Assembly (NCBI GenBank): GCA_963662545.2
Contig: CAXXLL010000002.1
Span: 960,001 to 1,024,000, forward strand
DNA length: 64,000 nucleotides
Source of the DNA: Gammaproteobacteria bacterium
GTDB lineage: Bacteria; Pseudomonadota; Gammaproteobacteria; Ga0077536
Reading direction: 5' to 3'
A program made the position numbers and the translations under genes. The notes beneath the pieces are model-generated. The model was not told where the DNA came from. It did not search any database and worked only from the letters and a program-made list of their open reading frames with translations. Each line of letters begins with the position of its first letter. Within the stretch, counting starts at the first letter, position 1. Of this stretch, positions 21,397 through 36,140 are shown piece after piece.

Positions 21397-21891
21397 TCAG
21401 GCATCAAATTCTCGCCAGTCAGGGAAATCGATTTTCGTTTCTCGCTGTTTTTCGACGAACGCTATGAATTCGGATGGCATCGTTCCCTGTATCGATTGAA
21501 ATACTTTCCAGCCTCCCGGCGTGTTGTATACAGTCGATATGTCGTACTTGATCCAGAGTTCGTGATGAGTATGCAAACCTTCTTCGCTAAGAAGCGTCCA
21601 GACAGATTTATGATTGTTGATGTATTACGCCATCAAAAACAAAAATCTTGTAGCTTCGTCGTCCGTTAATGATTCAGGGGTGGACATGCCCCTCATTAGG
21701 ATGCCCCCTAGCTTTTCGTCTTGGGCGATCTGAGCATTGATGCTATTCCAGCTTTGATCCAAAGTCGTCAACATCGCGAGTTTGTTCTGTTACCGATTCG
21801 CGCGGAGCTCAAACGCCACGAATAGCAATGTAATAACCGTTGCTATAGCAGCAATCAATTCGGCGAGGCTTCCTATTTCACCAATGCTCAT
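21397..21891 (-). pseudogene. Pseudogene of the repeated uncharacterised cassette family ('family X')
   Basis: MSIGEIGSLAELIAAIATVITLLFVAFELRANR*...EATRFLFLMA*...TPGGWK; TAA at 21790-21792 and 21625-21627. Confidence 0.82.
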
Positions 21892-21897
21892 TATTGA

Positions 21898-21947
21898 TGT
21901 CTAAAGGCGCCGCTGTTTGACGTCCGGGTTGATCCGGAGGTGAGGTG
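21898..21947 (-). repeat. Internally deleted attC remnant
   Basis: GCTGTTTGACGTCCGGGTTGATCCGGAGGTGAGGT resembles the right half of the local attC consensus. Confidence 0.6.
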
Positions 21948-21982
21948 TATATTTTTTCATTGAGCCCGCCGCGTTGTCTCAA

Positions 21983-22347
21983 TCATAAGGGATTCTTGTT
22001 GCGCCACGTCGGTATAAAAATCACGAATATGCGAAGAACAATGGCGATCAATGGGCACGCCACTAAAATTATGATGCTAAGAAAGACACGAGCGAGGTCA
22101 CTTCCATGCTGGAAACGTTCGTCTCGATCCGCTTGCCATGCTTTGTAGCAGTGTTTATGACCGTCGATTGGGGAAAACGCAAAATCAATAACGGTTTCGA
22201 GTGCTTTCCAATAGAGTTGAGCTCGGCGGGCGTTCACTGAGAAGAATCCTACGCGGGCGGAAATCGTTGCATCGGGGTGTCCGCCCGCAATAGCATTACC
22301 AAGTTGATCAATCGCAATCAGAATTGCGAGTGGCCAATTTTCGTACT
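21983..22347 (-). pseudogene. 5'-truncated hypothetical membrane protein (cassette)
   Basis: IAIDQLGNAIAGG..D.TISARVG; the 5' end is fused directly to an attC half-site. Confidence 0.65.
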
Positions 22348-22381
22348 GCTGTAACACGTCCGGTTGCTCTACAAGTTAGGC
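22348..22381 (-). repeat. attC half-site
   Basis: GCTGTAACACGTCCGGTTGCTCTACAAGTTAGGC matches the R''/L'' half of the attC family. Confidence 0.78.
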
Positions 22382-22424
22382 GGGCGTTGCATTTCAAACG
22401 TGCACTCAGCCGGCGTTCGTGTGC

Positions 22425-23165
22425 CTAAATACTCATAACGCCACGTTGTGGCTCAGGCCTGAAAAACGTCTTTGGTGCTATCGGGGCGGCAAGCTCCCGA
22501 AGCGCGTCCCGTTGTTTCGGAATTGGAGTACGAATTGAGATATCTTCGAATTCACGAAGCTTTGTAAAGCTTGGAAGATCCAATAGTCTGTTAACGAACG
22601 AAGCTGTTATTGGAAATTTGAACATATCCAGTTTTGTTCTGGCCAATGAGATATTGCGAAAAAACGAGGCAATCGCAATATCCGCTAAGGAAATCTCACC
22701 AAACAGAAAGCCGTGCTCCGGCAGCACGGATTCCAAATAGGTGAGTATTCTGGGGATATCTACTTCTAGCGTAGTCTTTAGTACGGTTGGGTCCTTTTCT
22801 TCGCCCCAAACAGATCGCCTTATGACGAGTTGATTAAAATACCGCCAAATAAAGACCTCGCCGATACGAGAATCTGCGTATTCTTCTAGCCACCTGGCTT
22901 TTGCACGCATTGTCGGGTCATTTGGATATAACGACGGCTCCGGATATCTATCTTCAAGGTACTCGCAAATGACCGTCGAATCCGGAATTGCCAATTCTCC
23001 ATCAATCAGCACGGGTATGCGCCGCACGGGGCTAAGCTTTGTGAATTCGTCATCCCCGTAAAAGGGCACGATCGGATCAATGTCGTAAGGCACGCCCTTA
23101 AGTTCCAAGCACACCAGTACCTTTCGAACATAAGGGGATAGATAAGAACCGATTATCGTCGCCAT
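22425..23165 (-). CDS. Glutathione S-transferase family protein (cassette)
   Basis: SPYVRKV, SPVRRIPVL, DSTVICEYL and SLADIA. Confidence 0.88.
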   Translation of the reverse strand: MATIIGSYLSPYVRKVLVCLELKGVPYDIDPIVPFYGDDEFTKLSPVRRIPVLIDGELAIPDSTVICEYLEDRYPEPSLYPNDPTMRAKARWLEEYADSRIGEVFIWRYFNQLVIRRSVWGEEKDPTVLKTTLEVDIPRILTYLESVLPEHGFLFGEISLADIAIASFFRNISLARTKLDMFKFPITASFVNRLLDLPSFTKLREFEDISIRTPIPKQRDALRELAAPIAPKTFFRPEPQRGVMSI

Positions 23166-23239
23166 TTGGAATTCCAGTCGTCTGGATCGTTAAGTGGATG
23201 TTGCACTTCTCTCGGATATTTACGTGAATGTTTCAAGTG

Positions 23240-23428
23240 TCATTTTGGTTCATCTACGCCTAGATCCCGAAATATCTTCCGAGCCAAATGATCGTTGATT
23301 TCTCGATGGCGTGGAACCGCGGAACGCCTATTGTGGGAGGGATTGTGCTACCAGGAATGGCGACCGCCTTCCCGTAGCAATTCGCAACCAGATGATTCGA
23401 GGTGTCGAATCAGATTGCGGCGCTTCAT
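23240..23428 (-). pseudogene. hicA: HicA toxin pseudogene
   Basis: MKRRNLIRHL...REGGRHSW*HNP...VPRHREI; TAG at 23348-23350. Confidence 0.85.
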
Positions 23429-23637
23429 ACGCCGATCTCAAGTTCCTCGTAGTCGTCCCCTGCGGCTGTAATCGCGTCCGAGCGATTAAATTCCAAAGCT
23501 TCGCGCAGGGTTACCTTCAACGACTTCACCAATTCCTCTCGAGTCGTTTCCTGGCAATTGACTCCGGGCACTTCTTGAACCCAGCCGATCCACCATCCGG
23601 CATCTTCCTTAATGACTGCTGTGTAGCTCGTATTCAT
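23425..23637 (-). CDS. hicB: HicB-like antitoxin
   Basis: YTAVIKEDAGWWIGWVQEVPGVNCQETTREEL; overlaps the hicA start. Confidence 0.85.
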   Translation of the reverse strand: MNTSYTAVIKEDAGWWIGWVQEVPGVNCQETTREELVKSLKVTLREALEFNRSDAITAAGDDYEELEIGV

Positions 23638-23667
23638 CCCAATAGTCTAGCTCACGATTCTTTTGTC

Positions 23668-23775
23668 ACCTAACGTTGGGATAACCTGCAGATTACAGCG
23701 CACTTTGGAGATGTGAGAATACCGGCACGGCGGAAAAGTGCGCTGTATGCTGGCAGGTTGATCCCGTTGTTAGGT
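23668..23775 (-). repeat. attC site (divergent family member)
   Basis: ACCTAAC...GGATAACC...GGTTGATCC...GTTAGGT with an internal stem. Confidence 0.88.
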
Positions 23776-23835
23776 GTATTTTTGATATTCTCTATTTCCT
23801 CTTAGTAACGATCGAAAGCTACGCCGCACAAATTA

Positions 23836-24072
23836 TCAATCCTCTGGTAAGGCGTCGAATTCCTTTTTTTTATTCTCGAACCATTCATTCATCGCGTCGG
23901 GCTTTTGCATAAGGTCTCGCATTTCCTTCATCGCTTTCAGATGGGCTTCATCTTCGCGTTCATACATTTCCATTCCATGTTGTTTGCTCATTTCGGCGAT
24001 TTCGTCGTAAGAGTTGGCTTGAAATTCCGTTTCGCATGCTCCGCCTAGTTGCCTGCAATTCATTGTTTTCAT
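23836..24072 (-). CDS. DUF1059-like small protein (cassette)
   Basis: MKTMNCRQLGGAC..EF.A...EI..MSKQHG; AAGGAGG RBS. Confidence 0.75.
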   Translation of the reverse strand: MKTMNCRQLGGACETEFQANSYDEIAEMSKQHGMEMYEREDEAHLKAMKEMRDLMQKPDAMNEWFENKKKEFDALPED

Positions 24073-24085
24073 TCTTCTGCCTCCT

Positions 24086-24172
24086 TAAGTTCAGCCGCGC
24101 TTGACGGCGGGTGACCGGAGCGGAAGCGCAGGGAGCTCGCGGTCAAGCGTCGGCTGCAACTTTTTGTTCGGT
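24086..24172 (-). repeat. attC site of a different family, lacking its R' box
   Basis: Minus strand ACCGAAC-AAAAA-GTTGCAGCCGACGCTTGAC...GTCAAGCGCGGCTGAACTT with no GTT core after it. Confidence 0.7.
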
Positions 24173-24196
24173 GAATGTTGCATTTCAGTCGTGAAT

Positions 24197-24472
24197 TCAG
24201 GTGCGTTTTTCGACGAGTTTGCCGGCTACATATTTGTGAAGCACGCTCGCCACAAGAGTTTGGTACGGAATGCCTTCTTGTAGAGCACGAGCTTGCAAAG
24301 CTCGGAGATCCCTCGATGAGAGGTGAATATTTATCCGCGTGTCTTTCTTGAACGTGGCTTGGGCATACTCTTTATGACATTCGATTTCCTTGCCGCTGCC
24401 TTTTGATTTTCTGAGCTTTCCTGCATCAAAAGCGTTAAGGATTTCCTTCTCTTTTTTATCGAGCTTACTCAT
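24197..24472 (-). CDS. CopG/RHH antitoxin
   Basis: KKDTRINIHLS..DL..LQARALQEGIPYQTL..SVLHKY. Confidence 0.85.
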   Translation of the reverse strand: MSKLDKKEKEILNAFDAGKLRKSKGSGKEIECHKEYAQATFKKDTRINIHLSSRDLRALQARALQEGIPYQTLVASVLHKYVAGKLVEKRT

Positions 24473-24648
24473 CTGAATTCCCAACATATTGTTTCGTTGC
24501 TTTACGACTCGGAATAATTGTCTTTAGGAAGATCTCATCTTCGTCTTCGATGAACGGAACCAGATACGCGTAGTCTTCGATAATTACAACGGAGATCTTC
24601 TGCCCCGGGTAGCTTCGCTGATTCGGGTGATTGAGGATCGCGACTTCG
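24465..24648 (-). pseudogene. 5'-truncated BrnT-like toxin
   Basis: HPNQ..YPGQ...YAYLVPF......FLKTIIPSRKATK C-terminal half only; fused to an attC half-site. Confidence 0.8.
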
Positions 24649-24696
24649 TTACAAAAAGCGAGCCTGTAAGCGGTCAGGTTGATCCGCTGGTTAGGT
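24649..24696 (-). repeat. attC half-site
   Basis: CTGTAAGCGGTCAGGTTGATCCGCTGGTTAGGT; the left half is deleted. Confidence 0.75.
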
Positions 24697-25080
24697 GTTC
24701 GTATCGCCATGGGTACGCACATAAGAAAAATACCAGAGAGCAGCGAGAAAAATGGCGACCATCGACAGAGTAGTTCCCCATATCATGGCGGGCATAAACC
24801 AAGCAGGGTCCGCTAATGCCTTATGCCATTTTAAACCGGAGCCCATTTGATCGCGAATGGCGGCGACGTTCGCAAGGTTTCGGTTTGTCCCAGTAATTAT
24901 AACTACGGATGAAATTGCATAGATCCAAACTACCGCTCGTGCTAATCCACTAGGAAGCGATTTTCCTGCAAAGTACCCGACAGCCAGTAGCGCCGAAGTT
25001 ACTGATATGAAATTCATAAAGTACGTCATGACAGCGCTCGTCTGCGCCAAAAACAGATCAGCTAACTCGTAATCACTCAT
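24691..25080 (-). CDS. Hypothetical membrane protein with about 3 TM segments (cassette)
   Basis: Three hydrophobic segments; stop codon lies inside the R'' box. Confidence 0.75.
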   Translation of the reverse strand: MSDYELADLFLAQTSAVMTYFMNFISVTSALLAVGYFAGKSLPSGLARAVVWIYAISSVVIITGTNRNLANVAAIRDQMGSGLKWHKALADPAWFMPAMIWGTTLSMVAIFLAALWYFSYVRTHGDTNT

Positions 25081-25094
25081 ACTTTTACTTGAAC

Positions 25095-25354
25095 ACCTAA
25101 CGAGGTTGTAGGAAAAGCCCCACAGACTGAAAATGTGCCAAATTCGGGGGTCTCGATACCATTACCCTAACCGAGATCGTCGCTTACAGAGCGTCGGACG
25201 AGGCCGAATTTCTGAGCGATTATTCGCAACGACTTATCCTACAACCTCAACGCTAGGATAACCGGCGTGTTACAGCAGGCTCCTTTGTGGCGAAAATGCG
25301 CAGGCGCCCCAAAGGAGCCTGCTGTAACACGTCCGGTTGATCCACTGGTTAGGT
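25095..25354 (-). repeat. attC site interrupted by a MITE
   Basis: ACCTAAC (25095-25101), then the 147-bp insert, then AACGCTAGGATAACC...GTTAGGT. Confidence 0.9.
25102..25248. mobile_element. 147-bp MITE
   Basis: 16-bp TIRs GAGGTTGTAGGA(A/T)AAG and a 3-bp AAC target duplication; no ORF. Confidence 0.88.
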
Positions 25355-25355
25355 T

Positions 25356-25649
25356 TCATTTTTGAGGCTTCCGCCAGTAGTTCGGCTCAAGATGAAGGTG
25401 AGCAACGGCAACAATGAGAATTTCTTCGTCAGTTACTTCGTAGATTAACCCGTATTTGAATCGGCGGGTCCTGCACCGGCGGGTGTTTTCGCTGAGCGGC
25501 GCCTAAGCAATCGGGTGTCGTTCTATCCGTTTTGTCGTAGCGCGTACTTCTTCTAGAAACTCTTGACCGAGACCGTCACGCTGATCATTTAGGTACTCAA
25601 TGGCATCTCGGAGTTCTGCGCGAGCCGGATCTAGAAAGCGAACTTTCAA
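25356..25649 (-). pseudogene. RelE/ParE-family toxin pseudogene
   Basis: MKVRFLDPARAEL...GLGQEF...HPIA*AP...RRFKYGLIY...VAVAH; TAG at 25503-25505. Confidence 0.87.
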
Positions 25650-25867
25650 GCGCCTTCCAGATTCGCAAACACTTCATCCGACGAATACGCTTGGATTTCG
25701 CCTGCACGGTAAGCGCGGAGTCGATCTTCCGCCTCCTTCGCCCACAATGCGTCAATGTTCGGGGCAGGTTTGTCGAAGCTGTTCAACAATTCCTCAACCA
25801 GGCCGACGCGCTCGTTAGGCGAAAGACCAAGCGCTTCTCGATAAAGCTTTTTTGCATTCTCAGTCAC
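25646..25867 (-). CDS. Addiction-module antitoxin component
   Basis: ALGLSPNER..LVEELL.S......IDALWAKEAEDR; coupled to the ParE-like gene. Confidence 0.83.
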   Translation of the reverse strand: MTENAKKLYREALGLSPNERVGLVEELLNSFDKPAPNIDALWAKEAEDRLRAYRAGEIQAYSSDEVFANLEGA

Positions 25868-25920
25868 AGGATTTCTCTTCCACGTCCGATAATATAAGTA
25901 TAGACCGGAGTCGAAATGAG

Positions 25921-25939
25921 ACCTAACAGTTAATTAGGG
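25921..25939 (-). other. attI-like or collapsed recombination site within the array
   Basis: ACCTAACAGTTA is identical to the 12 bp at the attI (36113-36124); no attC hairpin here. Confidence 0.6.
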
Positions 25940-26013
25940 AGTGTTGCACTTCACTTGGAAATCTAAGTGTCTCTACTTCGCAGCAAGGACCTTCGGACAG
26001 GGATACGACGCTC

Positions 26014-26622
26014 TCAGACAGATGCATTCTTAGTTTTGACTATCTGTGTTCCCATTAAACGATCGATGAGCCGAACAACCGGTTTGCGTAAAAACACGCC
26101 CACGATAATAGGCCCGACAAACGCGCCAAGCAGAAACCACAGGTTCGATCGAGCGTATTTGAGCGGATATATTTCGTTATTACGTACTCGATATTCAGAA
26201 AGCGATGACCAAGGCGTGTCTCCAACCATAAATACCTGGACGATCTGGCTTTCGTCGCTTTCAGGGAGTACTGAGATGGTCGCACTAGTCTCTCCTCGAC
26301 TCCAATTGCGGGAGGGCGGGTGCTCAGGCAATAAATACTGCACATTGCGGAAGTTCTCTTCGGCCAAATCGGCTCCATATCGATATACATGCGTATCGGA
26401 AGCTTCCTCACCATATTCGGCTATGAATGCGATGTACATCTGGGACGTTTCGTTCGGTTCAACGTCATCGAGGAACCACTTGGCGCTACTATAGTACGCC
26501 GTCCCCGGGCCTACACACGAGCCGATAAACAGCGCGGATAGCACGACGAGTTTTAGGCAGCCGGCAACGAATCGCTTTACGAACCCAATGACTTCTTCCG
26601 ACATTTCTTGCTTCTCAATCAC
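26014..26622 (-). CDS. Hypothetical protein with 2 TM segments (cassette)
   Basis: Hydrophobic N- and C-terminal segments around a soluble domain; low GC. Confidence 0.7.
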   Translation of the reverse strand: MIEKQEMSEEVIGFVKRFVAGCLKLVVLSALFIGSCVGPGTAYYSSAKWFLDDVEPNETSQMYIAFIAEYGEEASDTHVYRYGADLAEENFRNVQYLLPEHPPSRNWSRGETSATISVLPESDESQIVQVFMVGDTPWSSLSEYRVRNNEIYPLKYARSNLWFLLGAFVGPIIVGVFLRKPVVRLIDRLMGTQIVKTKNASV

Positions 26623-26661
26623 TATGTGCGTATCTGAGAGTTTGTCTGCCGGACACTGGAG

Positions 26662-27546
26662 TTACCCAAGAACCGTAGACACGTTCATGGGATTAGGTTG
26701 TAACTCGTAGTTATCGGGGCTGAGATAGCCGAGCGCCGAGTGCCGGCGTTGGCGGTTGTAGAAGATCTCGATGTATTCAAACAGGCCGGCACGGAGTTCA
26801 TCGACCGTGCGGTAGTTCTCCGGATAGATGAGTTCGACCTTCAGGCGGCTGAAGAAGGACTCCATGACGGCGTTGTCCCAGCAGTTCCCCTTGCGGCTCA
26901 TACTCGGTTGAATACCGGAGTCCGTCAATAGTTGTTGGTATTCGTTGCCGCGGTACTGCACGCCACGGTCGGAGTGCAGCAGCAGCCCTTCAGAGATATC
27001 CCGGCGAGACACCGCCATCGTCAGTGCATCGACGATGAGCGTTTCGCGCATGTGGGGCTCAAGTGTCCAGCCGACAATCTTGCGCGAATACAGGTCCAGC
27101 ACCGCAGCGAGATAAGCCCAGGTGCGACCGACCTTGATATAGGTAATGTCAGAGACCCATTTGCGATTCGGCCCGTCGGTGGTGAAGTTCCGGTCGAGCA
27201 GGTTGTCTTTGACCTGCGTCATCGATTCGACCCGCTTCTCGTAGCGGAAGCCTTTGCCGTTCAAGGCCCGCAACTGCAGCGAACGCAGCAATTTGGCCAC
27301 ATAATTTTTGCTGCACGGCACACCGTCTTCAACCAATTCCTTCGTCAGACGCGGCGCCCCATAACGCCGTTTGAAGCGGTAATACAGATAGCTCAGTACC
27401 TGCCGCATCTGCTCACGTCGCCTGGCCTGCTCACTCAGCGGCCGCTTCAGCCAGGCATAAAAGCCCGACCGCGACACCTCTAACACCCGACACATCAGCG
27501 TCACCGGATAGGCACCCCGGTTCTCTGCGATTAAGGCGTACTTCAC
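26662..27546 (-). CDS. IS3 transposase OrfB
   Basis: WVSDITY, HSDRGVQY and CWDNAVMESFF. Confidence 0.93.
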   Translation of the reverse strand: MKYALIAENRGAYPVTLMCRVLEVSRSGFYAWLKRPLSEQARRREQMRQVLSYLYYRFKRRYGAPRLTKELVEDGVPCSKNYVAKLLRSLQLRALNGKGFRYEKRVESMTQVKDNLLDRNFTTDGPNRKWVSDITYIKVGRTWAYLAAVLDLYSRKIVGWTLEPHMRETLIVDALTMAVSRRDISEGLLLHSDRGVQYRGNEYQQLLTDSGIQPSMSRKGNCWDNAVMESFFSRLKVELIYPENYRTVDELRAGLFEYIEIFYNRQRRHSALGYLSPDNYELQPNPMNVSTVLG

Positions 27547-27854
27547 TTGTCGGGGTTGGCAAAGTACGCCGTCGCTTTTTTTAGGAAATCTCGCTCCTGC
27601 TCGAGCTCCGCTACCTTCCTCTTCAGGCGACGGATCTCGGTTTTCTCTTCTTTCGAATAATCTGTGCCGTCCGCCAGCTTGAACTGCTTGTTCGACAGAT
27701 TGTTGAACTGGGCGCGCCAGTTGTAGATCTGACCGGGATGGAGCCCGAGTTCTTTCGCCACCTCGGTCGCCGTACGACCGGGTTGATCAGCTAGGCGAAC
27801 CGCTTCTTGACGGAACGATTCCGGATACGACTGCGTTTTCTTCTTTCTCGGCAT
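27543..27854 (-). CDS. IS3 transposase OrfA
   Basis: HTH; ERDFLKKATAYFA containing an A7G slippery site. Confidence 0.9.
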   Translation of the reverse strand: MPRKKKTQSYPESFRQEAVRLADQPGRTATEVAKELGLHPGQIYNWRAQFNNLSNKQFKLADGTDYSKEEKTEIRRLKRKVAELEQERDFLKKATAYFANPDK

Positions 27855-27921
27855 CGTGACACTTCCAATTGCATCTTAGTACGATGCATTAGGGTGTCTA
27901 CTTTTCGTGGGTAACTCGGGA

Positions 27922-28031
27922 ACCTAACGCAAAGTTAACCGGCGTGTTACAGCCAGCTCCTTTGGGGCGAAAATGCGGAGCCGCCCCAAAGGAGCTGGCT
28001 GTAACACGTCCGGTTCAACGCCTTGTTAGAG
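27922..28031 (-). repeat. attC site
   Basis: 110 bp, ACCTAAC...GTTAGAG, family consensus. Confidence 0.93.
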
Positions 28032-28263
28032 GGCGCTTATATCGCTCGACGTACGAATCGAGAAGACGCCGAATCATTTTCTGATAAGGCGTGTTGCGTC
28101 TCTCGGCCTCGCCTTTGAAGAAATCGACGCTCGATTTACTTAACGAGATCGTGACCTTAACGGTCTCATCTCGGAAAGCAAGTTCGTCTGGCGAGGGCAA
28201 GAAGTCCTCGATGACTTCGATGTCCCCTATAGGTTCATCGGTGTACTTTATTTTCGCGCTCAT
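28015..28263 (-). CDS. CopG/BrnA-like antitoxin
   Basis: DFLPSPDEL...TVKVTISLSK.SVDFFK......PYQKMIRRLLD. Confidence 0.85.
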   Translation of the reverse strand: MSAKIKYTDEPIGDIEVIEDFLPSPDELAFRDETVKVTISLSKSSVDFFKGEAERRNTPYQKMIRRLLDSYVERYKRPLTRR

Positions 28264-28528
28264 AGACTCTCTTACCTTTTCTCCAATATCCGGCGCCAAA
28301 TATTCGGATTACGTTTCGGCGATAGGTGAACCTAACCGTCAAAATCCCTTCACCGGCCTCGCCGAAACAGTAATAACGCTCTTCGGTTTCGCTGCTATGC
28401 GCTAAATCCTTGGCGATGACTCGTTTCGGATCGGCGAATGCGTATTGAGCTTCGGCAAAGAAAATACGGTGTTTCGCTTGATTCTCGGCGTCCTTTTCCG
28501 AGTCCCACTCAAAGCTTTCCTTGCTCAT
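28235..28528 (-). CDS. brnT: BrnT-family toxin
   Basis: FEWDSEK...N..KH.I.F..A...F.DP...EER...ILTVRFTYR...IRI. Confidence 0.9.
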   Translation of the reverse strand: MSKESFEWDSEKDAENQAKHRIFFAEAQYAFADPKRVIAKDLAHSSETEERYYCFGEAGEGILTVRFTYRRNVIRIFGAGYWRKGKRVYERENKVHR

Positions 28529-28534
28529 AGGGTA

Positions 28535-28566
28535 AGTATAGAACTGATATGGCTATATCGCCATAT
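28535..28566 (-). promoter_or_regulatory. TA cassette promoter and operator
   Basis: -10 TATACT 6 nt upstream of the ATG; inverted repeat ATATGGC-N6-GCCATAT. Confidence 0.6.
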
Positions 28567-28599
28567 GAATATGTGGCGCAGAGATGTCTGGTTTCAGCC

Positions 28600-28709
28600 C
28601 TCTAACGCTAGGATAACCTGCGCGTTACAGCGCGCTTCTTTGGAGCGAAAATGCGAAGCCGTTTCAAAGAAGCGCGCTGTAACACGTCAGGTTGATCCTT
28701 TTGTTAGGC
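28600..28709 (-). repeat. attC site
   Basis: 110 bp, CTCTAAC...GTTAGGC. Confidence 0.93.
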
Positions 28710-28719
28710 GGCGCGTACA

Positions 28720-29238
28720 TTAATCTTTTCGTGTGTCCAGAATAGGCATCATATCGATCAGCGAAGGTAGGTCTGGTTCTTCACGAAGATGCCTCTCCAA
28801 TTCGAGCCCAACTTCCTTATCTACTACTTGGATTACTTGAGGCCAGACTTTTCTTCCACCGGGGGTCCTTATAAAGGCTCCCACATATGCCAGCCATGTA
28901 GTGTAGTCCACCTCACTCAATAACCCTTGTTTATGCAAGCTTAGTACGTTCTGTAGTTGTACGACATGCTCTATGAGTAGAAATGTAAATCGTGTCTTTT
29001 CTATCCGATCGAGTTCATCGAAGGATGACAGTCCGCGAGCGTGTACATCAGCCACTTCGCTATTTGTTATCGTAGGATTAACGATACGGTCTCGCGCCCC
29101 GTCCAGCATATTTTGTACCGAAGCCGCTTGAGTAGCACGAGTATTTCCCCGTACTTGAATGGCCAGATACACAACGGATATGACGACTGCTACAGCACTG
29201 ATAATTTCGCCAATTGCCGCCGCTGAATCCAAATTCAT
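28720..29238 (-). CDS. Uncharacterised cassette protein, family X
   Basis: N-terminal TM helix AAIGEIISAVAVVISVVYLAIQVR; EKTRF; TPGGRKVW. Confidence 0.8.
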   Translation of the reverse strand: MNLDSAAAIGEIISAVAVVISVVYLAIQVRGNTRATQAASVQNMLDGARDRIVNPTITNSEVADVHARGLSSFDELDRIEKTRFTFLLIEHVVQLQNVLSLHKQGLLSEVDYTTWLAYVGAFIRTPGGRKVWPQVIQVVDKEVGLELERHLREEPDLPSLIDMMPILDTRKD

Positions 29239-29256
29239 TCCGTGTCTTCCCGTGCC

Positions 29257-29366
29257 GCCTAACGCCAGGATAACCTGCGTGTTACAGCGCGCTTCTTTCG
29301 GGCGAAAATGCGTAGCCGACCTAAAGAAGCGCGCTGTAACACGTCAGGTTGATCCGTTTGTTAGGT
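29257..29366 (-). repeat. attC site
   Basis: 110 bp, GCCTAAC...GTTAGGT. Confidence 0.93.
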
Positions 29367-29375
29367 GAATGTTGC

Positions 29376-30697
29376 GGTACGGACCGGGTAGATAGGTAAC
29401 ATTATAGTCAAGGTACATGGGTGACAGATCAATGGTATTAGGTTCCTCAAAGGAGGAGTCCGATGCCCTGGAGAGAAACGTCACCAATGAACGAAAAAAC
29501 GCAATTCATCGCAGACTATCTGCGCGACCTGTTGACAGTTACCGAGCTGTGCGAACATTACGGCATCAGTCGCAAGACTGGCTACAAATGGATTGATCGG
29601 TATCTAAGCGAAGGTCCGGCGGGTTTAGAGGAACGCACACGGCGGCCTAGAACTTGCCCGCATAAAACGCCGGCGCGGCTCGAGCGCCTGATCATCGATG
29701 CGCGACAACGTCATCCGACTTGGGGCGCTCGTAAATTGCGGACGTTTCTATCGCGGAAGCACCCGCGAGAGCCGTGGCCAACACGGACAACCATTCATGA
29801 CATCCTAATCCGTGAAGGATTCATCCGGACACCGCGGCGCTCACGCAAACTCGGGCATCCGGGAAAACCTGAAACCCGAATGAATGCACCCAACCAAACC
29901 TGGGGCGCCGACTTCAAAGGGCATTTCAAGACCGAAGACGGGCGGTATTGTTACCCGTTGACCGTCACCGATGGCTTTAGTCGATACCTCATCGGATGCC
30001 AGTCATTACTCACGACCGCCGTTGAACCATCGAAGGCGGTGTTCACCCGCTTATTCAAAGAATACGGACTGCCAGAACGCATCCGTACCGACAACGGCGT
30101 CCCCTTCGCGACGAACACGCTCGGTCGATTATCAACGCTGTCTGCCTGGTGGATCAGGCTTGGTATTTATCCCGAGCTCATCGAACCCGGAAAGCCTCAA
30201 CAAAATGGCCGACACGAACGGATGCACCGAACCTTAAAGGCGGAGACGACTCGACCTCCGGCCGGGGACTATCGCGCGCAACAGAAACGATTTAATCGGT
30301 TCCAGATTGAATTCAATGAAGAACGCCCTCATGAAGCGCTCGACATGTTCACACCTGCCGACTTCTACGAATTTTCTGCCAAAGAAATGCCTAGCAAAAT
30401 CCCGCCGCTCGAATATCCTGACCGTTTCATCAAGCGCTTCGTCAGTGCCAACGGTGGCATCCGATGGCATTCCACCCATGTGCCTGTCTCAATCGCGTGT
30501 GCCGGTGAGTACATAGGATTAGAGGAAATCGACTGTGGTGTTTGGAACGTCTATTTCGGAACGCTTAAGCTCGGCCGAATGATTGAAAAATACAATCGGA
30601 TCGAAGATGCTTACGGCCGACTAAAACGACATTATCGATAACAAAAGTGTTACCCATCTACCTTGGCACTTTTGTTACCTTTCTCCCGGTCCGCTCA
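29376..30697 (+). mobile_element. IS481-family insertion sequence
   Basis: IRs CGGACCGGG(T)AGA.AGGTAACA with internal repeats; no TSD seen. Confidence 0.87.
29463..30641 (+). CDS. IS481-family transposase
   Basis: MPWRE start, SRKTGYKW, WGADFKG, TDNGVPF and QNGRHERMHRTLK. Confidence 0.93.
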   Translation: MPWRETSPMNEKTQFIADYLRDLLTVTELCEHYGISRKTGYKWIDRYLSEGPAGLEERTRRPRTCPHKTPARLERLIIDARQRHPTWGARKLRTFLSRKHPREPWPTRTTIHDILIREGFIRTPRRSRKLGHPGKPETRMNAPNQTWGADFKGHFKTEDGRYCYPLTVTDGFSRYLIGCQSLLTTAVEPSKAVFTRLFKEYGLPERIRTDNGVPFATNTLGRLSTLSAWWIRLGIYPELIEPGKPQQNGRHERMHRTLKAETTRPPAGDYRAQQKRFNRFQIEFNEERPHEALDMFTPADFYEFSAKEMPSKIPPLEYPDRFIKRFVSANGGIRWHSTHVPVSIACAGEYIGLEEIDCGVWNVYFGTLKLGRMIEKYNRIEDAYGRLKRHYR

Positions 30698-30926
30698 TTT
30701 GCATCCGGTTCGCATAGTCACGACCAGATGTTGGTGGGGGTAGCGGCTTACCATCCTGTTCGTAGAGTTCAATAGCTTCCTCTACGATTCGACACAATTC
30801 TTCAAAGACTTCTTTTTCGTTTGCTCCGTGACAACCGCCCAACACAAGTCCAGGGGCACTGCCGACATAACACTCGTCTTCGTCAGACCACTCAACAATT
30901 TTCGCGTAACGAGCACTTCCTTTCAT
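30675..30926 (-). CDS. hicB: HicB-like antitoxin (C-terminal residues replaced by IS481 sequence)
   Basis: VEWSDEDECYVG..PGL..GGCHG...GKPLPPP; the tail SGPGER comes from the IS end. Confidence 0.82.
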   Translation of the reverse strand: MKGSARYAKIVEWSDEDECYVGSAPGLVLGGCHGANEKEVFEELCRIVEEAIELYEQDGKPLPPPTSGRDYANRMQMSGPGER

Positions 30927-31120
30927 TTCTTTATCTCCGCGAGCACCTTTTGGACTGCTCGAATCTGATATTCTTTTGCGTCGTCTCCAAGTTTGCCCGA
31001 AATCGTTATGGGATTCGATATATTCGGATGCACAAAGTTTCGATGACTTCCCTTTCCGCCTCGATTCTTAAAGCCTCCGCGCTCCAAGTCGGCAATTAGC
31101 TCTCGGATCTTGGGAGGCAT
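30923..31120 (-). CDS. hicA: HicA toxin
   Basis: LERGGF....GKGSHRNFVHP.....TISG..GDDAK.YQ. Confidence 0.88.
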   Translation of the reverse strand: MPPKIRELIADLERGGFKNRGGKGSHRNFVHPNISNPITISGKLGDDAKEYQIRAVQKVLAEIKK

Positions 31121-31130
31121 TCTGTGTGGC

Positions 31131-31240
31131 GCCTAACGCTAGGATAACCTGCGTGTTACAGCGCGCTTATTTGGAGCGAAAATGCGAAGCCGGTTCAAAG
31201 AAGCGCGCTGTAACACGTCCGGTTGATCCATTGGTTAGGT
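31131..31240 (-). repeat. attC site
   Basis: 110 bp, family consensus. Confidence 0.93.
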
Positions 31241-31699
31241 GGCTGTTTTCTCAAGGTGTTGGTCAACAAATTGCGTAAAGGCATCGCTGAATCTCCATTT
31301 CTGTGCCGACCACCACTTCCGTGCGCCAATGCCTTCGTACGTCTTTAGCGCGCTTTCACGGTAGCCCTCCCATTCTTGACGGGGAAACTTGCCGCTCGAA
31401 GCGGTATAAAACATATATTGAACGGATCGCGACCATGCCCACATGGCGATGTTGAATCTCGCGCGCTCTGCTTCGCTCAATTCCTCATCCGCGATACCCC
31501 TTTCCCACAGTAGCGGAAGATCTGGCTCCGCCATTAAAGAGCAGAGAAAATCTCTCGAAAGCTGTATAGAAAACGAGAAATTCGCGTCGTTCTGCGCGGC
31601 CGTGTTTCGCCTTAGTTCTACGACGAGATATAGGAGGGAAATAACGACGCAGATTACGCCGGCCCCTTCTACCAATACGCCGATGGCTTCCCAATTCAT
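31235..31699 (-). CDS. Uncharacterised cassette protein, family X
   Basis: MNWEAIG..VE.AGV..VVISLLYL..ELRRNT; ERARF; GARKWW. Confidence 0.8.
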   Translation of the reverse strand: MNWEAIGVLVEGAGVICVVISLLYLVVELRRNTAAQNDANFSFSIQLSRDFLCSLMAEPDLPLLWERGIADEELSEAERARFNIAMWAWSRSVQYMFYTASSGKFPRQEWEGYRESALKTYEGIGARKWWSAQKWRFSDAFTQFVDQHLEKTAT

Positions 31700-31714
31700 C
31701 GATTTACTCTGGCC

Positions 31715-31824
31715 ACCTAACGCCAGGATAACCTGCGTGTTACAGCGCGCTTTTTTTGGGCGAAAATGCGGAGCCGACCTAAAGAAGCGCGCTGTAGCAC
31801 GTCAGTTTGATCCGTTTGTTAGGT
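31715..31824 (-). repeat. attC site
   Basis: 110 bp, family consensus. Confidence 0.92.
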
Positions 31825-32115
31825 TGCGGGTTCATTTCGACGCCGATAACTTGTTTCTGGTTTGATTTCGTCAAGAAGGATACCAGAGCGAAACCTCCTT
31901 ACAATCGAATAAGATTTCGGCTTTTTAGGGGCACGAATTGCCTCGCGATCCGAAGACACCATAGCGGCAGTGAATTCCCCCGACTACCTTCCCGGTAGTC
32001 TCGTCGTATTGAACTTAGCACCATAAAATTGCGGCGTGGACCGGAGCCGAATTCATTGGCCTTTTGCCATACTGCGGCGCTTCCGGTGGCCTGTTCGCAA
32101 TGATTTTCTTTCGCA
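31825..32115 (-). other. ORF-less gene cassette (~290 bp)
   Basis: Bounded by two intact attCs with matching ends GTTAGGTTGCG / CGCAACCTAAC; no credible ORF. Confidence 0.75.
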
Positions 32116-32225
32116 ACCTAACGCTAGGATAACCGGCGTGTTACAGCCAGCTCATTTGGGGCGAAAATGCGAAGCCGCCCCAAATGAGCTGGCTGTAACA
32201 CGTCCGGTTGATCCATTTGTTAGGC
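32116..32225 (-). repeat. attC site
   Basis: 110 bp, family consensus. Confidence 0.93.
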
Positions 32226-32267
32226 GGCAGTTTTTCGAACCAATTTCGACCTCTACTTTCATTCCGG

Positions 32268-32783
32268 TTATTCACATCTAAGCCAGTCCAAATCTTCATT
32301 CGCTGGTGTTATATCCAGGTTCGTTTCGTTCAGGCGTCCTTCTATATGAATCGTAAGCGTTTCGGGCGGCAAGTGCTTCCAAGCTTCCCACCATTGACGC
32401 CCTCCAGGTGAAAGCACGAAAGATAAGTACAGACTCTCACTTTTTCTGAAAAGCGCCTCATCTTGGAGCATGCCGCTTTTGTACAGCGTCCAAACTTGAT
32501 AATAGCCGTTCGTAAGCAACTGCATTTTGGAATGAAACACTGCTTTCCCGTTTCGATCTAGTTCGCCGAATCGGCTTAGCCCTTCTCTAAAATTCTCGGC
32601 AGCTTTTTCGTCAGACGTCATAGCAGCATAGGCATCTACGAACTCCTTCACAGCCTCTTTCAACGCCTGCGCCGACTGTTGCCGGTTGTTTTGCCTGATC
32701 TGTACTGACAGATAGCCAAGAGTCGCGACTACAGCTACGACACCAATAATTTCCGCAATAGCGCCGACAGCTTCCCAGTTCAT
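32268..32783 (-). CDS. Uncharacterised cassette protein, family X
   Basis: MNWEAVGAIAEIIGVVAVVATLGYLSVQIRQN; SPGGRQWW. Confidence 0.8.
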   Translation of the reverse strand: MNWEAVGAIAEIIGVVAVVATLGYLSVQIRQNNRQQSAQALKEAVKEFVDAYAAMTSDEKAAENFREGLSRFGELDRNGKAVFHSKMQLLTNGYYQVWTLYKSGMLQDEALFRKSESLYLSFVLSPGGRQWWEAWKHLPPETLTIHIEGRLNETNLDITPANEDLDWLRCE

Positions 32784-32800
32784 AAAAAGTTTCTACTGCC

Positions 32801-32911
32801 GCCTAACGCTAGGATAACCGACGTGTTGCAGCTGGTTTGTTTTCGACGAAAATGCGCAGCACGGCTAAAACAAGCCAGCTGCAACACGGCCGGTTGATCC
32901 ACTGGTTAGGC
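32801..32911 (-). repeat. attC site
   Basis: 111 bp, family consensus with compensatory changes. Confidence 0.92.
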
Positions 32912-33442
32912 GTCATTTTCCTTTGTCCAGTGTTGCGGTTGGTAAAACGGAACGGCCTCAATGATCGACGGCGCATCGGGACCGAGTTCGCTGAGTTTTT
33001 TGTCGAACAGCCCCACGAATCTTGGGTCATATACGGTTTTTACGACTTTCCACCACGAGCGAACGCCGGATGGGCTTAACATCATTATGGTCATCGCCTC
33101 ACGCGACGAATACGTGACATCGTCTATGGCTCCGCGATTCCACAACAGCCAGCAAGTTTCGCACCACCTGATGTAGGCGTGTAGGTATAGATGCGCCCTA
33201 GCTTGTTCTTGGGCGGACAATGATTCCCAATCGCTCGCGGCTCGGACAAAAACGCGTGTTAGTTCTTCATCATCGCGAAGATCTTGGACAAGATCTTTTT
33301 CGGTGTTGTTAATCTCGATAATCGCATCGCCATGCAACTGGTTCGTGTGTTGACGTATCTGGGTCGCTAGGTATAACAGTGTGACGACTGTTGCTACCGC
33401 TGCGAGGATTTCTCCAACGCTGCCGAGGTCTTGAATGGTCAT
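32906..33442 (-). CDS. Uncharacterised cassette protein, family X
   Basis: MTIQDLGSVGEILAAVATVVTLLYLATQIRQ; EQARA; PSGVRSWW. Confidence 0.8.
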   Translation of the reverse strand: MTIQDLGSVGEILAAVATVVTLLYLATQIRQHTNQLHGDAIIEINNTEKDLVQDLRDDEELTRVFVRAASDWESLSAQEQARAHLYLHAYIRWCETCWLLWNRGAIDDVTYSSREAMTIMMLSPSGVRSWWKVVKTVYDPRFVGLFDKKLSELGPDAPSIIEAVPFYQPQHWTKENDA

Positions 33443-33465
33443 AGGACGAATGTAATCGTAATGAC

Positions 33466-33575
33466 GCCTAACGCTAGGATAACCTGCGTGTTACAGCGTG
33501 CTTCTTTTTAGCGAAAATGCGAAGCTGCTGAAAAGAATCACGCTGTAACACGTCAGGTTGATCCATTTGTTAGGT
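33466..33575 (-). repeat. attC site
   Basis: 110 bp, family consensus. Confidence 0.93.
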
Positions 33576-33710
33576 GGCGGGGCGATTAACGAAGCCTGGG
33601 CCATATTTCTTTTGCATTTGACAGAGGTGGACCCCGGCGGTTGGACAGAGAACAGGAGCTGATAAGTGGAATCTTCTAGCTTAGGAATCTCGTGAGAGAA
33701 GGAGCAGAAG

Positions 33711-34001
33711 ATGACCCGAAGAAAGCGACGTAATCACGCATCGGCGTTCAAGGCCAAGGTCGCTCTGGCGGCGGTGAAGGGCGAACGCACACGGGCCGAG
33801 CTGGCCGAGCAGTTCGACGTTCATCCTAATCAGAGCCAGGACTGGAAGAAGCGCCTGGTGGAAGGCGCCGAGGACGTGTTTGGCGTGAACGCTGTGGAGG
33901 CCCAGCACAACGAAAAGGGGGTAGAGAAGCTCCACGCCAAGATCGGGCAGTTGGCGATGGAGAACGATTTTTTATCCACAGTGCTCGGGCGCGACCGATG
34001 A
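33711..34001 (+). CDS. IS3 transposase OrfA
   Basis: RRNHASAFKAKVALAA; KIGQLAMENDFL. Confidence 0.9.
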   Translation: MTRRKRRNHASAFKAKVALAAVKGERTRAELAEQFDVHPNQSQDWKKRLVEGAEDVFGVNAVEAQHNEKGVEKLHAKIGQLAMENDFLSTVLGRDR

Positions 34002-34843
34002 GCGAGCGCCGGCAACAAATTCACACAGCGCATAAGGTGCCCAGGACGCGGCGCTGCGAATTGCTCGAGGTGGCACGCTCGAGCGCGTACTACCGTCCCG
34101 AGCCGGTCAGCGAGACAGATCTGATGCTGATGCGGCTGATCGACGAGATCCACCTGCAGTGGCCGTTTTACGGCCGTCGGCGGATCCGCGACGAACTGGA
34201 AGATCGCGGCCATGTGGTCAACCGCAAGCGGGTCCAACGTCTGATGCGTCAGATGGATTTGAGGGCTTTGTATCCACGACGCCGAACGAGCCAGTCCGGG
34301 AAGGGACACAAGATCTACCCGTACCTGCTCAGGGATCTGGCTATCGAACGGCCGAACCAGGTCTGGGCGAGCGACATCTGCTACCTCCCGATGGCCAGAG
34401 GGTTCATGTACCTGGTGGCCATCATGGACTGGCATTCGCGCCGGGTGCTGTCGTGGCGCGTGTCGAACACGTTGGATACGGACTTCTGTATCGAGGCGCT
34501 GGAAGAGGCCCTGCAGCGTTTCGGCGCGCCGGAAATCTTCAACACCGATCAGGGGTCCCAGTTTACCTCCGAGGCGTTCACCGGCGTACTCAAAGACCAG
34601 GGCATCAAGATCAGCATGGATGGCAAGGGGCGCTGGGTGGACAACGTGTTCGTTGAACGGCTCTGGCGCAGCGTGAAATATGAGGACGTATACTTACGCG
34701 CCTATGCAACGCCAACCGAGCTTCGTGTCGGATTGGACCGGTACTTCAAGTTCTACAACACTAAGCGCCGTCACAGCGCGCTGGACCGACGCACCCCGGA
34801 TGCGGTGTACTTCGATTTGGCTGGCCGCACGTTGGCAGCCTGA
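33998..34843 (+). CDS. IS3 transposase OrfB
   Basis: WASDICY, NTDQGSQFTS and DNVFVERLWRSVKYE. Confidence 0.93.
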   Translation: MSERRQQIHTAHKVPRTRRCELLEVARSSAYYRPEPVSETDLMLMRLIDEIHLQWPFYGRRRIRDELEDRGHVVNRKRVQRLMRQMDLRALYPRRRTSQSGKGHKIYPYLLRDLAIERPNQVWASDICYLPMARGFMYLVAIMDWHSRRVLSWRVSNTLDTDFCIEALEEALQRFGAPEIFNTDQGSQFTSEAFTGVLKDQGIKISMDGKGRWVDNVFVERLWRSVKYEDVYLRAYATPTELRVGLDRYFKFYNTKRRHSALDRRTPDAVYFDLAGRTLAA

Positions 34844-34994
34844 AACCTAAGGAAGATTTCACTTACGGCACTGTCCAAGTTTCGGGGTCCATTTCTGACA
34901 GCGTGTTTAGTTGCACTTTACTTGGAAATCTAAGCAGCATATTGCACATCACACATCATTATCACAGTGAAAGTAGCAACTGTTGTAACTCTAT

Positions 34995-35439: not shown

Positions 35440-35548
35440 ACCTAACGCTAGGATAACCGGCGTGTTACAGCTGGCTCATTTGGAGTGAAAATGCGCAGCC
35501 GCTTCAAATGAGCCAGCTGTAAACGTCCGGTTGATCCTTTTGTTAGGT
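35440..35548 (-). repeat. attC site
   Basis: 109 bp, family consensus with a 1-nt deletion. Confidence 0.92.
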
Positions 35549-35818
35549 TTTTTCATTTCCGTGCGCTTCCATATAAGTTCTAAGGACGGCGTTTATACGA
35601 GTTTGATACCCTTTCCCCTGATTCCGAAACCATTTAAGTACATCTGAGTCGAGTCGAACGGTGATGCTCGATTTCTTCGATGGCATTCGAAGCTCCGCGG
35701 ACTTAAAGAACTCTGGATCAAGCGGTGGGATATCTGACGTATCAATGTCGGTATCCGTCTGAGATTGGACTTCATCCCAATCGGTTTTTGATCGCTTTTT
35801 CGAAGGCTTTGCGCTCAT
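35543..35818 (-). CDS. brnA: BrnA antitoxin
   Basis: IDTSDIPPL...K.SITVRLDSDVLKWFR..GKGYQTRINAVLR. Confidence 0.92.
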   Translation of the reverse strand: MSAKPSKKRSKTDWDEVQSQTDTDIDTSDIPPLDPEFFKSAELRMPSKKSSITVRLDSDVLKWFRNQGKGYQTRINAVLRTYMEAHGNEKT

Positions 35819-36062
35819 GATTCAATGCTTTCCTCAACGAGATAATTCGGATGATTTCTCCATCATTACGTTCCGTAAATGCGACCACTGCACATATCGA
35901 TTCGAGGAGCCCGATACCCAGCCATCTCGGTTCGCCATAGTCTTCACGGCTATCGAGTAGGCTAAGTACTGGACCTTCGAATAGGGTGACAGCGTCGCGG
36001 AAATCGAGGCCGTGTTTGCGAAGATTTTCCTTTCTCTTCGATTCGTCCCACTCGAATTCCAT
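35772..36062 (-). CDS. brnT: BrnT toxin
   Basis: MEFEWDESK...N..KHGLDF..A...F....DYGEPR...IRIISLRKA. Confidence 0.92.
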   Translation of the reverse strand: MEFEWDESKRKENLRKHGLDFRDAVTLFEGPVLSLLDSREDYGEPRWLGIGLLESICAVVAFTERNDGEIIRIISLRKALNHERKAFEKAIKNRLG

Positions 36063-36112: not shown

Positions 36113-36140
36113 ACCTAACAGTTATATGGAAAGAACGAGT
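36113..36140 (-). other. attI site
   Basis: Minus strand TTCCATATAACT-GTTAGGT upstream of the first cassette, no hairpin, adjacent to the intI 5' end. Confidence 0.75.

Follow-up and report, generated by a model that had tools for sequence, protein, structure and literature searches.

A family of small membrane-anchored proteins with a conserved helix and diverged soluble domains, carried in part as integron cassettes

Introduction

The function of most integron cassettes is not known, and defence has recently been suggested as the role of many. We describe here a family of small, uncharacterised membrane proteins, five diverged members of which lie in an integron cassette array of a gammaproteobacterium (assembly GCA_963662545.2), within 64,000 nucleotides of contig CAXXLL010000002.1 (positions 960,001 to 1,024,000, forward strand). 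This whole stretch is called the window below, and positions refer to it unless a contig is given; the four intact members are designated A to D, the fifth is a pseudogene, and the genome is written G000, with contigs C2 (which contains the window) and C3. An earlier note on the window, written from the sequence alone, had proposed that the five are paralogues of one family held as separate cassettes, and that they constitute a shuffleable repertoire of variant-specific sensor, immunity or phage-exclusion proteins.

Among the closest described systems are integron cassettes that confer phage resistance (BRiCs). Transmembrane (TM) helices are present in about a third of the tested phage-resistance cassettes; for one of these proteins an octameric membrane pore is predicted, and another appears to block genome injection (bioRxiv 10.1101/2024.07.02.601719). 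A small transmembrane cassette protein is also reported to give resistance to phage T4 (bioRxiv 10.64898/2026.03.17.712381). The BRiCs come from mobile integrons and Vibrio arrays, and our comparison with them is by description only.

A second point of comparison is offered by the 1TM effectors of CBASS and by Cam1 of type III CRISPR systems, in which an oligomerising N-terminal TM helix is joined to a cytoplasmic sensor that controls membrane integrity. The ligands of these effectors are cyclic nucleotides, which come from a partner enzyme encoded alongside.

Results and discussion

Five sequences of one family

The four intact open reading frames (ORFs) are present on the minus strand where the earlier note had placed them (Table 1), and their products align with one another, B, C and D being 20–28% identical to A in a four-way alignment with 13 invariant columns. 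Pairwise BLASTP between members gives E-values from 1.5e-4 to 1e-17, and tblastn against the whole 5.58-Mb genome connects A with C (3.7e-13), with D (6e-13) and with the pseudogene (4.2e-11), B with C (2.4e-7), and D with the pseudogene (2.8e-9); at E<0.01 the connection of B with A and D runs solely through C. A family profile of 70 sequences, the four intact members included, matches those four at 1e-42 to 2e-60, and it matches the pseudogene, with its two TAA codons, at 7.3e-26. Alignment, BLASTP, tblastn and profile matches thus agree that the five diverged sequences form one family. The three motifs described previously are real and correspond to the family's conserved columns, namely the TM helix, L75..E79..R82-F83, and P126-G127-x-R-x-W131-W132. 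Scans of Pfam, NCBIfam, PHROGs and PDB sequences matched no characterised housekeeping family, and the 95 homologues of member C, the best of them 92% identical, are all unnamed ("hypothetical protein").

A near-invariant helix and a variable soluble domain

The family proteins are 150–180 residues long and consist of one N-terminal TM helix and an all-helical soluble domain. The helix had been regarded as a shared anchor; it is present in all members as proposed, and it is moreover the most conserved part of the protein, with a mean identity of 0.63 over residues 1–32 versus 0.24 over residues 33–150 among 139 representatives of distinct 50% clusters. Within these representatives conservation reaches 95% at G7, 96% at E11, 88% at G14, 96% at V18, 94% at L22, 97% at Y24, 99% at Q28 and 97% at R30, with A15 and L25 also inside the 88–99% range, and the near-invariant small or polar residues (G7, E11, G14/A15, V18, L22, L25 and Q28) lie on one face of the helix. 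The soluble domain keeps a conserved core of L75, F83, W112, PG126-127, W132 and F143, and is otherwise less than 25% identical between members.

The contrast between the two parts is also seen among paralogues of this one genome. For residues 1–32 of 31 in-genome paralogues the protein identity is 0.44, with 0.65 at codon positions 1+2 and 0.33 at position 3, from which it follows that selection on the protein, and not recent gene conversion, preserves the helix. Third codon positions among the paralogues, at about 0.3 identity, are saturated, and the soluble domains are less than 20% identical.

The orientation in the membrane can be predicted from charge. Among 147 members, residues 6–27 have a mean hydropathy of 1.97, residues 1–5 carry a net charge of -0.95 and almost no Lys or Arg, and residues 28–42 carry +1.52. 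Under the positive-inside rule for membrane-protein topology, the acidic N-tail and the basic stretch following the helix predict that the N-terminus is outside and the C-terminal domain cytoplasmic. An AlphaFold2 model of C, made with a 70-row alignment (pLDDT 92.2), has a continuous helix from residue 3 to residue 55 followed by five helices arranged as a bundle. The design is bitopic, with a constrained helix joined to a freely diverging soluble domain.

Predicted self-association and a proposed function

When four copies of C are modelled together, the ipSAE is 0.57 (0.55–0.61 in three runs), as against 0.00–0.01 for three unrelated-protein controls, with at least 76% of the contacts agreeing between runs and a partner pLDDT of at least 77. 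Of 30 proteins solved as one-chain pairs, 20 reach that ipSAE mark, as does 1 of 23 single-chain structures, in a calibration that used two copies and the tool's own alignments, unlike the four-copy run. Confident contacts fall at residues 4, 7, 8, 11, 14, 15, 18, 21, 22, 25 and 29, which is the conserved helix face, and further contacts join the stalk (residues 46–64) to the neighbour's helix 77–105, which holds the conserved L75/E79/R82/F83 segment. The helix is accordingly modelled as self-associating along its conserved face, with a confidence far above that of the best control; this is model confidence and not a measurement.

Our tentative preference is for a protein that combines a stand-alone, variable sensor with a self-associating membrane helix and whose role is conflict with phages or with other mobile elements, a possibility that we do not rate as high as an even chance. 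Each protein would work alone, because no conserved partner gene accompanies it (see below). The conserved helix face would drive parallel self-association in the inner membrane, where rings of E11 and Q28 might line a cation path, and the variable cytoplasmic bundle would determine what each paralogue recognises. Binding of an invader-derived ligand could then turn the helix bundle into a leaky or a blocking form, the outcome being membrane depolarisation or exclusion, and the genome would stock many such specificities, part of them as shuffleable cassettes.

A more ambitious form of this proposal, which we think unlikely, is that each protein is a single-polypeptide immune receptor and effector, in which the hypervariable bundle directly recognises phage or plasmid proteins and gates a Glu/Gln-lined pore formed by the invariant helix, dozens of ancient specificities being traded as cassettes and tandem arrays. 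The logic of such an innate repertoire would resemble that of plant NLR collections, and at more than 20,000 sequence clusters the family would rank among the largest unrecognised defence families.

Copies in the genome

The family is not restricted to the array, and its size was underestimated in the earlier note. Searches with tblastn and an iterated hidden Markov model, over ORFs of at least 70 residues, find 48 family ORFs on both large contigs, 31 of full length and 17 that are fragments, and a six-frame search gives 54 matches, which are not copy numbers. All copies have a GC content of 0.44–0.55. With the attC sites of the window as query, nhmmer locates 65 attC loci in 15 clusters genome-wide, the window array accounting for 13 sites. 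Of the 48 family ORFs, 17 lie in attC clusters, and the clusters represent 1.5% of the genome, margins included (binomial p 2e-19). The remaining copies have no attC within reach in this search, and the one non-cassette locus that was inspected, which has four copies, is set among insertion sequence (IS) transposases.

The paralogues are old. For 20 of the 31 full-length copies the better match lies outside the genome, although only 400 outside sequences were compared (19 of 31 if one outside sequence, which may be the genome's own product, is set aside), and this closer relationship to outside sequences marks the in-genome paralogues as ancient; the exceptions are an exact second copy of B and one pair at 99%. 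Judged from these sequence comparisons, the repertoire looks to have been assembled by acquisition and long retention, with turnover reflected in the fragments. The repertoire idea of the earlier note is supported to this extent, in that ancient paralogues with closer relatives elsewhere fit a build-up by acquisition.

Three further observations concern the genome outside the window. The second copy of cassette B (154 of 154 residues by tblastn) lies about 1.1 Mb away at G000:C2:2113174-2113635, is also flanked by attC, and looks like a recent cassette duplication or relocation. The other contig carries an attC array of 26 sites over 32 kb with no adjoining intI (G000:C3:1917892-1949543), and elsewhere on it a second intI, 54% identical to that of the window and above the TIGR02249 cut-off (G000:C3:1527218-1528183), adjoins one attC and a family fragment. 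Two non-cassette family genes (L001:5212-5862 and L002, at G000:C3:890211 and 376796) have a near-identical upstream extension, and the longest ORFs of both start with MKCRSLFEGHNNYAGGEYFYFVVVFLSFHT, which points to a repeated upstream element.

The integron and its cassettes

The integrase gene intI scores 462.5 bits against NCBIfam TIGR02249, for which the cut-off is 265 (G000:C2:996723-997664, that is window 36723-37664). The GTTAGGT between this gene and the first cassette ORF is assigned from its position as the putative attI crossover. The cassette array extends leftward from it as small minus-strand ORFs separated by a 110-nt repeat, and the segment from 20.3 to 36.1 kb is a block of low GC (0.48–0.54, versus about 0.59–0.62 in the flanks). 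In cassette orientation the repeat reads RCCTAAC...GTTAGGY and folds into a long imperfect hairpin, and on account of these ends and this hairpin we identify it as attC, an element defined by a hairpin in which the inverse core sites, R'' (RYYYAAC) and R' (GTTRRRY), can pair. The sites downstream of A, B, C and D (110–111 nt) have hairpins of -29 to -50 kcal/mol, and all seven R''/R' pairs are predicted, with compensatory changes at two of them among 34 sites from 7 genomes.

Each of A to D is a single-gene cassette with an attC directly downstream and the attC of the previous cassette upstream, and all four thus have both an attC with pairing R''/R' and an array that adjoins intI and the putative attI. 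For B and D the stop codon falls within the R'' box of the cassette's own attC (GCCTAAC for D). The intact copies do cluster near attI, as cassettes 3, 4, 6 and 8. The description of the members as separate cassettes stands, with the amendment that nhmmer finds no complete attC adjoining the pseudogene, an L''-like remnant being visible by eye at about 21921-21935. Both pseudogene stops are free of letter differences in public run X8, in a contig over 20300-23279, and the first stop is likewise without differing letters in run X13.

Table 1. Features of the window, with positions counted from its first nucleotide
Feature	Position	Strand	Remarks
Integron integrase intI	36654-37670	+	338-aa ORF; Pfam Phage_integrase 1.1e-37, Phage_int_SAM_4 2.2e-24
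Putative attI crossover core GTTAGGT	36113-36119	-	Sole GTTAGGY core between intI and first cassette ORF
BrnT/BrnA-type toxin-antitoxin cassette	35543-36062		Directly at attI
IS3-type element	33711-34843		Inside a cassette
attC of preceding cassette	33466-33575	-	Upstream boundary of cassette D
Family member D	32906-33442	-	178 aa, intact; third cassette from attI; family profile match 1.3e-43
attC of cassette D	32801-32911	-	111 nt; nhmmer 6.1e-35; R''/R' ends and hairpin
Family member C	32268-32783	-	171 aa, intact; fourth cassette; protein used for modelling
attC of cassette C	32116-32225	-	110 nt; hairpin -49.5 kcal/mol (DNA parameters)
attC upstream of cassette B	31715-31824	-	Closes the ~400-bp cassette 31825-32225
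Family member B	31235-31699	-	154 aa, intact; sixth cassette
attC of cassette B	31131-31240	-	110 nt; repeat family, nhmmer, R''/R' ends, hairpin
HicA with partner	30675-31120		Same array
IS481-type element	29463-30641		Inside the HicAB cassette
attC upstream of cassette A	29257-29366	-	Belongs to the HicAB cassette
Family member A	28720-29238	-	172 aa, intact; eighth cassette; family profile match 1.4e-42
attC of cassette A	28600-28709	-	110 nt; repeat family, nhmmer, R''/R' ends
Second BrnT/BrnA-type toxin-antitoxin cassette	28015-28528
IS3-type element	26662-27854		Inside a cassette
Addiction-module antitoxin-like ORF	25646-25867
Family pseudogene	21397-21891	-	Near far end of array; one frame, TAA at codons 34 and 89

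By Pfam, the remaining cassettes of the array encode glutathione S-transferases, a glyoxalase and proteins without a family. The toxin-antitoxin cassettes raise the question of whether the family proteins are themselves selfish or addictive, that is, membrane-active, toxin-like cassette stabilisers that are costly to lose or ride on mobile DNA and bring the host no benefit. The array is rich in such cassettes (two BrnT/BrnA pairs, HicA and the addiction-module antitoxin), and the high copy number, the share of fragments and the association with IS elements would fit as well, as would the potential of a self-associating helix with a buried acidic residue to damage membranes. We nevertheless consider this explanation very unlikely: the layout of a type II toxin-antitoxin system is missing from the family cassettes, each of which has one ORF, no partner antitoxin gene and no conserved neighbouring family, more than 30 intact copies coexist in the one genome, and strong selection on the protein is maintained across phyla.

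Several smaller features of the array may be recorded. The cassette of about 400 bp at 31825-32225, between two good attC sites, has no cassette-strand ORF of 60 residues or more. A 124-residue ORF at 36222-36596 (plus strand, as intI), between the putative attI and intI, has no Pfam match; it could be spurious, or else belong to the attI/promoter region. A contig of run X8 joins 33618 to 34896, its shorter side being 33 letters, so that some genomes would be without the first IS element. Joints between attC sites in the same run, with sides of 20–34 letters, could be repeat assembly effects and were not used as evidence of shuffling.

Twenty public runs belonging to 7 studies, some of the runs labelled sponge metagenome, have contigs with DNA near-identical to 28700-33600, so the array or its host has been seen repeatedly; in this comparison shares below 0.2 were left uninterpreted. 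In two metatranscriptome runs the contigs lie mainly over the IS elements, with one 159-nt contig within gene B (31546-31704), although a contig from an RNA library is no proof of transcription.

Distribution in other genomes

The family is found in 17 of 41 related genomes, the three richest having 22, 16 and 8 matches; in the same taxonomic family it occurs in 15 of 24 genomes, and in other families of the class in 1 of 16. A profile search of public data, counted as representatives of 50%-identity clusters, returns 20,592 sequences at E≤1e-3, 11,838 at 1e-10 and 1,739 at 1e-30, and there are at least 509 confirmed relatives in species-representative genomes. Among the matches listed are Halieaceae, Pseudohongiellaceae, Porticoccaceae, Woeseiaceae and other Gammaproteobacteria, together with Gemmatimonadota, Myxococcota, Spirochaetales, Acidimicrobiales, Limisphaerales and a relative of Desulfobulbia.

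Eighty loci taken from other genomes contain 141 ORFs of the family, many of which stand in tandem, as many as seven of them within 6.4 kb. Some tandem runs are cassette arrays with a different attC type (R'' GCATAAC, R' GTTATGY), and because box position 3 covaries (C-G at 22 sites, A-U at 11) real attC sites are probably present in several genomes; when attC sites of mixed type are aligned, only the ends match up. A strict detector (regular expression plus hairpin), which recovers 8 of the roughly 14 sites in the window, reports attC at 6 of the 141 family genes. A relaxed detector reports 11 of 141, against a background of 7 hits in 46 kb of the window outside the array and of 29 shuffled-locus versus 73 real-locus hits. 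An arm-energy test for an attC-like site at the stop codon, with a threshold passed by 8 of 11 known sites, is positive for 16 of 136 genes versus 1 of 136 when shuffled. By eye, about 30 of 141 stop-codon contexts resemble R'' boxes (perhaps a fifth), which is an impression and not a rule-based count. Between a third and a half of the sites in the window itself escape these detectors, so the true attC-linked share is higher. The cassette enrichment that the earlier note had supposed is therefore clear in this genome, where 17 of 48 ORFs lie within 1.5% of the sequence, and is not general, as only the 16 of 136 genes elsewhere have an attC-like site. The family is enriched in integrons and is not dependent on them.

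A separate observation concerns two loci from Pseudohongiella records (L094 and L098), where a conserved element of about 40 nt with the internal palindrome GATATCTATAGTATC stands beside several tandem family genes without attC. This element could be a shared regulatory or recombination site.

Neighbouring genes and competing explanations

The surroundings of the family were surveyed in the same 80 loci and 141 family genes, using the nearest 150 of 263 non-family ORFs within 1.5 kb. No conserved partner gene recurs in these loci except a small multi-helix membrane-protein family in 10 of the 80 loci. Proteins of this recurrent family are about 135 residues long and without a Pfam match (L078:223-630 and 16 other ORFs, in the 10 external loci); the window ORF 24691-25080 (minus strand, 129 residues) was considered as a further member and rejected, the match being weak (E 0.002 over 34 residues). 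Fused longer forms of the family proteins were not found at E≤0.001 among 7,999 candidates, which is weak evidence.

Diverged single-gene paralogues arrayed in cassettes and in tandem runs (141 ORFs in 80 loci), and apparently acquired horizontally, might also constitute a repertoire of orphan immunity proteins, or antidotes, against the toxins of competing bacteria, each cytoplasmic domain neutralising a different toxin at the inner membrane and the genes being stockpiled in integron-like arrays. Recombinase-associated arrays of orphan immunity genes in gut Bacteroidales provide a parallel. This explanation strikes us as distinctly unlikely, however, as Pfam identifies no polymorphic-toxin, Rhs, CDI or secretion-system gene among the 150 neighbours and no cognate pair was seen there, and as the shared fold and core point to a single mode of action, where a set of folds, each specific for one toxin, would be expected. 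To our knowledge, a near-invariant TM helix with a buried Glu would also be unusual for immunity proteins.

A number of observations weigh against our preferred reading of a sensor and membrane helix used in conflict. The copy number, at about fifty in this genome, is extraordinary, and we know of no precedent for fifty paralogues of one defence family in a single genome. The oligomer is a prediction with controls only, in which copy 2 of the four makes almost no confident contacts, so that the four-copy stoichiometry is tentative, and the pore, the ligand and the phenotype are conjectural elements in which our confidence is low. Among the 41 relatives the family is present in 7 of 17 genomes with a full-length intI and in 10 of 24 without one, a descriptive comparison between genomes that are kin and not independent. 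Most copies elsewhere have no recognisable attC, and in many tandem runs the genes are separated by ordinary intergenic DNA. The 1.5-kb flanks carry no defence-island signature. At E≤1e-8, PADLOC models match 4 of the 150 neighbours, namely two NUDIX proteins, one DUF6933 protein and a sigma-54 activator of generic type, and in three of these cases the model is a candidate one, hit by a NUDIX or DUF protein. Pfam assigns the neighbours to small accessory enzymes (glyoxalase, cupin, NUDIX, GNAT, SnoaL, DinB), housekeeping genes and a few transposases or integrases. A PADLOC comparison, which the earlier note had suggested, gives nothing significant for the proteins themselves: in PADLOC-DB v2 A, B and D match no family and C reaches only PDC-S20 (E 0.026) and Effector 1TM (PDLC00666; E 0.07, residues 1–52), a null result that concerns membership in known defence families and not defence function.

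The proteins might instead be accessory membrane adaptors that have no part in conflict, with the helix docking to a conserved inner-membrane component, or assembling with it, and the bundle tethering or regulating various host proteins for, as examples, niche-specific envelope, stress or metabolic tuning; their cassette location would then merely reflect small size and dispensability. We regard this as a doubtful but serious alternative. It agrees with neighbours that are mostly small accessory enzymes and housekeeping genes and not defence genes, with a presence among relatives that is independent of intI, with the location of most copies outside recognisable cassettes, and with the failure to find the family in viral collections: 40 pattern matches among 2.9 million viral contigs of IMG/VR include no relative by tblastn, and PHROGs gives nothing significant, with 1 of 70 members matching at E 0.0033. 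A fold search of BFVD likewise has no match at E≤0.001. A shared docking partner is nonetheless a poor explanation for about fifty ancient paralogues with less than 20% identity in the soluble domain, and it leaves the fragments (17 of 48), the low GC and the IS-rich settings without an explanation. Even among genomes of a single taxonomic family the proteins occur patchily (in 15 of 24), and the conserved helix face is predicted to contact itself. The variable sensor with a self-associating helix remains the reading that we tentatively prefer, and what probability it leaves, together with adaptors, orphan immunity and selfish cassettes, belongs to some explanation that we have not conceived.

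The family is of interest under any of these explanations. One unannotated family makes up about a quarter of the attC-linked ORFs of this genome, and its clear design, an almost invariant helix with a buried glutamate and a fast-diverging bundle, is contained in a single small gene for which point mutants suggest themselves and domain variants exist in nature, which makes it easy to test. Whichever role applies (defence, immunity or membrane regulation), the family merits a model and a name, and a sensor-pore defence, if true, would reveal the way in which recognition repertoires are stored in integrons and in tandem arrays.

Comparison with described families and systems

The sole recurrent lead in Pfam is DUF6082 (PF19560; cut-off 26.7 bits), to which D scores 21.5 bits over residues 3–134 and C 14.3, with no hit for A and B; 9 of the 70 members match at E≤0.01 and none exceeds the cut-off. 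The proposal to look for a Pfam DUF therefore yielded only these sub-threshold matches. The DUF6082 model run against the whole genome, with its roughly 50 family members, gives 2 matches, both sub-threshold. DUF4760 (PF15956) matches 1 of 70 members at E 0.0049, which is not significant. In the ESM Atlas, some of the neighbour clusters are unnamed; another, with 32% DUF6082-annotated members, has a feature score of 0.96 when the whole protein is compared and 0.85 with the soluble part, and a DUF4760 cluster scores 0.79, which is a lead only. DUF6082 and DUF4760 are similar to the family in length and in having an N-terminal hydrophobic helix followed by a helical region, and both are uncharacterised; a distant superfamily link to DUF6082 is possible. 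A full-text search of the literature returned nothing useful on DUF6082 and DUF4760 only as a table entry, and no published description of the family itself was found, although it could be listed in supplementary tables.

Scans of other libraries with the four proteins and 70 relatives found nothing significant in NCBIfam, and matches to anti-sigma, Rv0361 and CpaB models were rejected as sub-threshold or restricted to the helix. The best E-value in a PDB sequence profile search is 0.13. The structural comparison that had been suggested identified no relative: the full-length model of C has no Foldseek match in the PDB at E≤0.001, and VIA-align of the same model against 48,161 chains gives a best Z of 6.8 (root-mean-square deviation 4.0, 118 residues aligned), where helical bundles need a Z of about 8–13 and 6.8 is within the stated noise.

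The architecture of the family resembles that of the CBASS 1TM and Cam1 effectors; the match to the PADLOC Effector 1TM model is insignificant and confined to the helix. Those effectors differ in having a partner gene, which this family lacks, and within the full-length model the soluble domain could be matched to no known sensor fold. The likeness to the BRiCs is of another kind, in that both are single-gene attC cassettes for small TM proteins without known domains; no BRiC is described as belonging to a family with dozens of paralogues per genome, as is the case here.

Ordinary cassettes of sedentary chromosomal integrons provide the remaining comparison. These are likewise promoterless-looking single ORFs bounded by attC, in one orientation near intI, and mixed with toxin-antitoxin cassettes and IS elements. 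The present array differs in that one family accounts for 17 ORF hits among the 65 attC loci of the genome, and in that this family is common outside integrons and in genomes without a full intI. A cassette encoding a small membrane protein without known function is a known kind of element; what is new here is the scale, the invariant helix and the fifty-fold repertoire.

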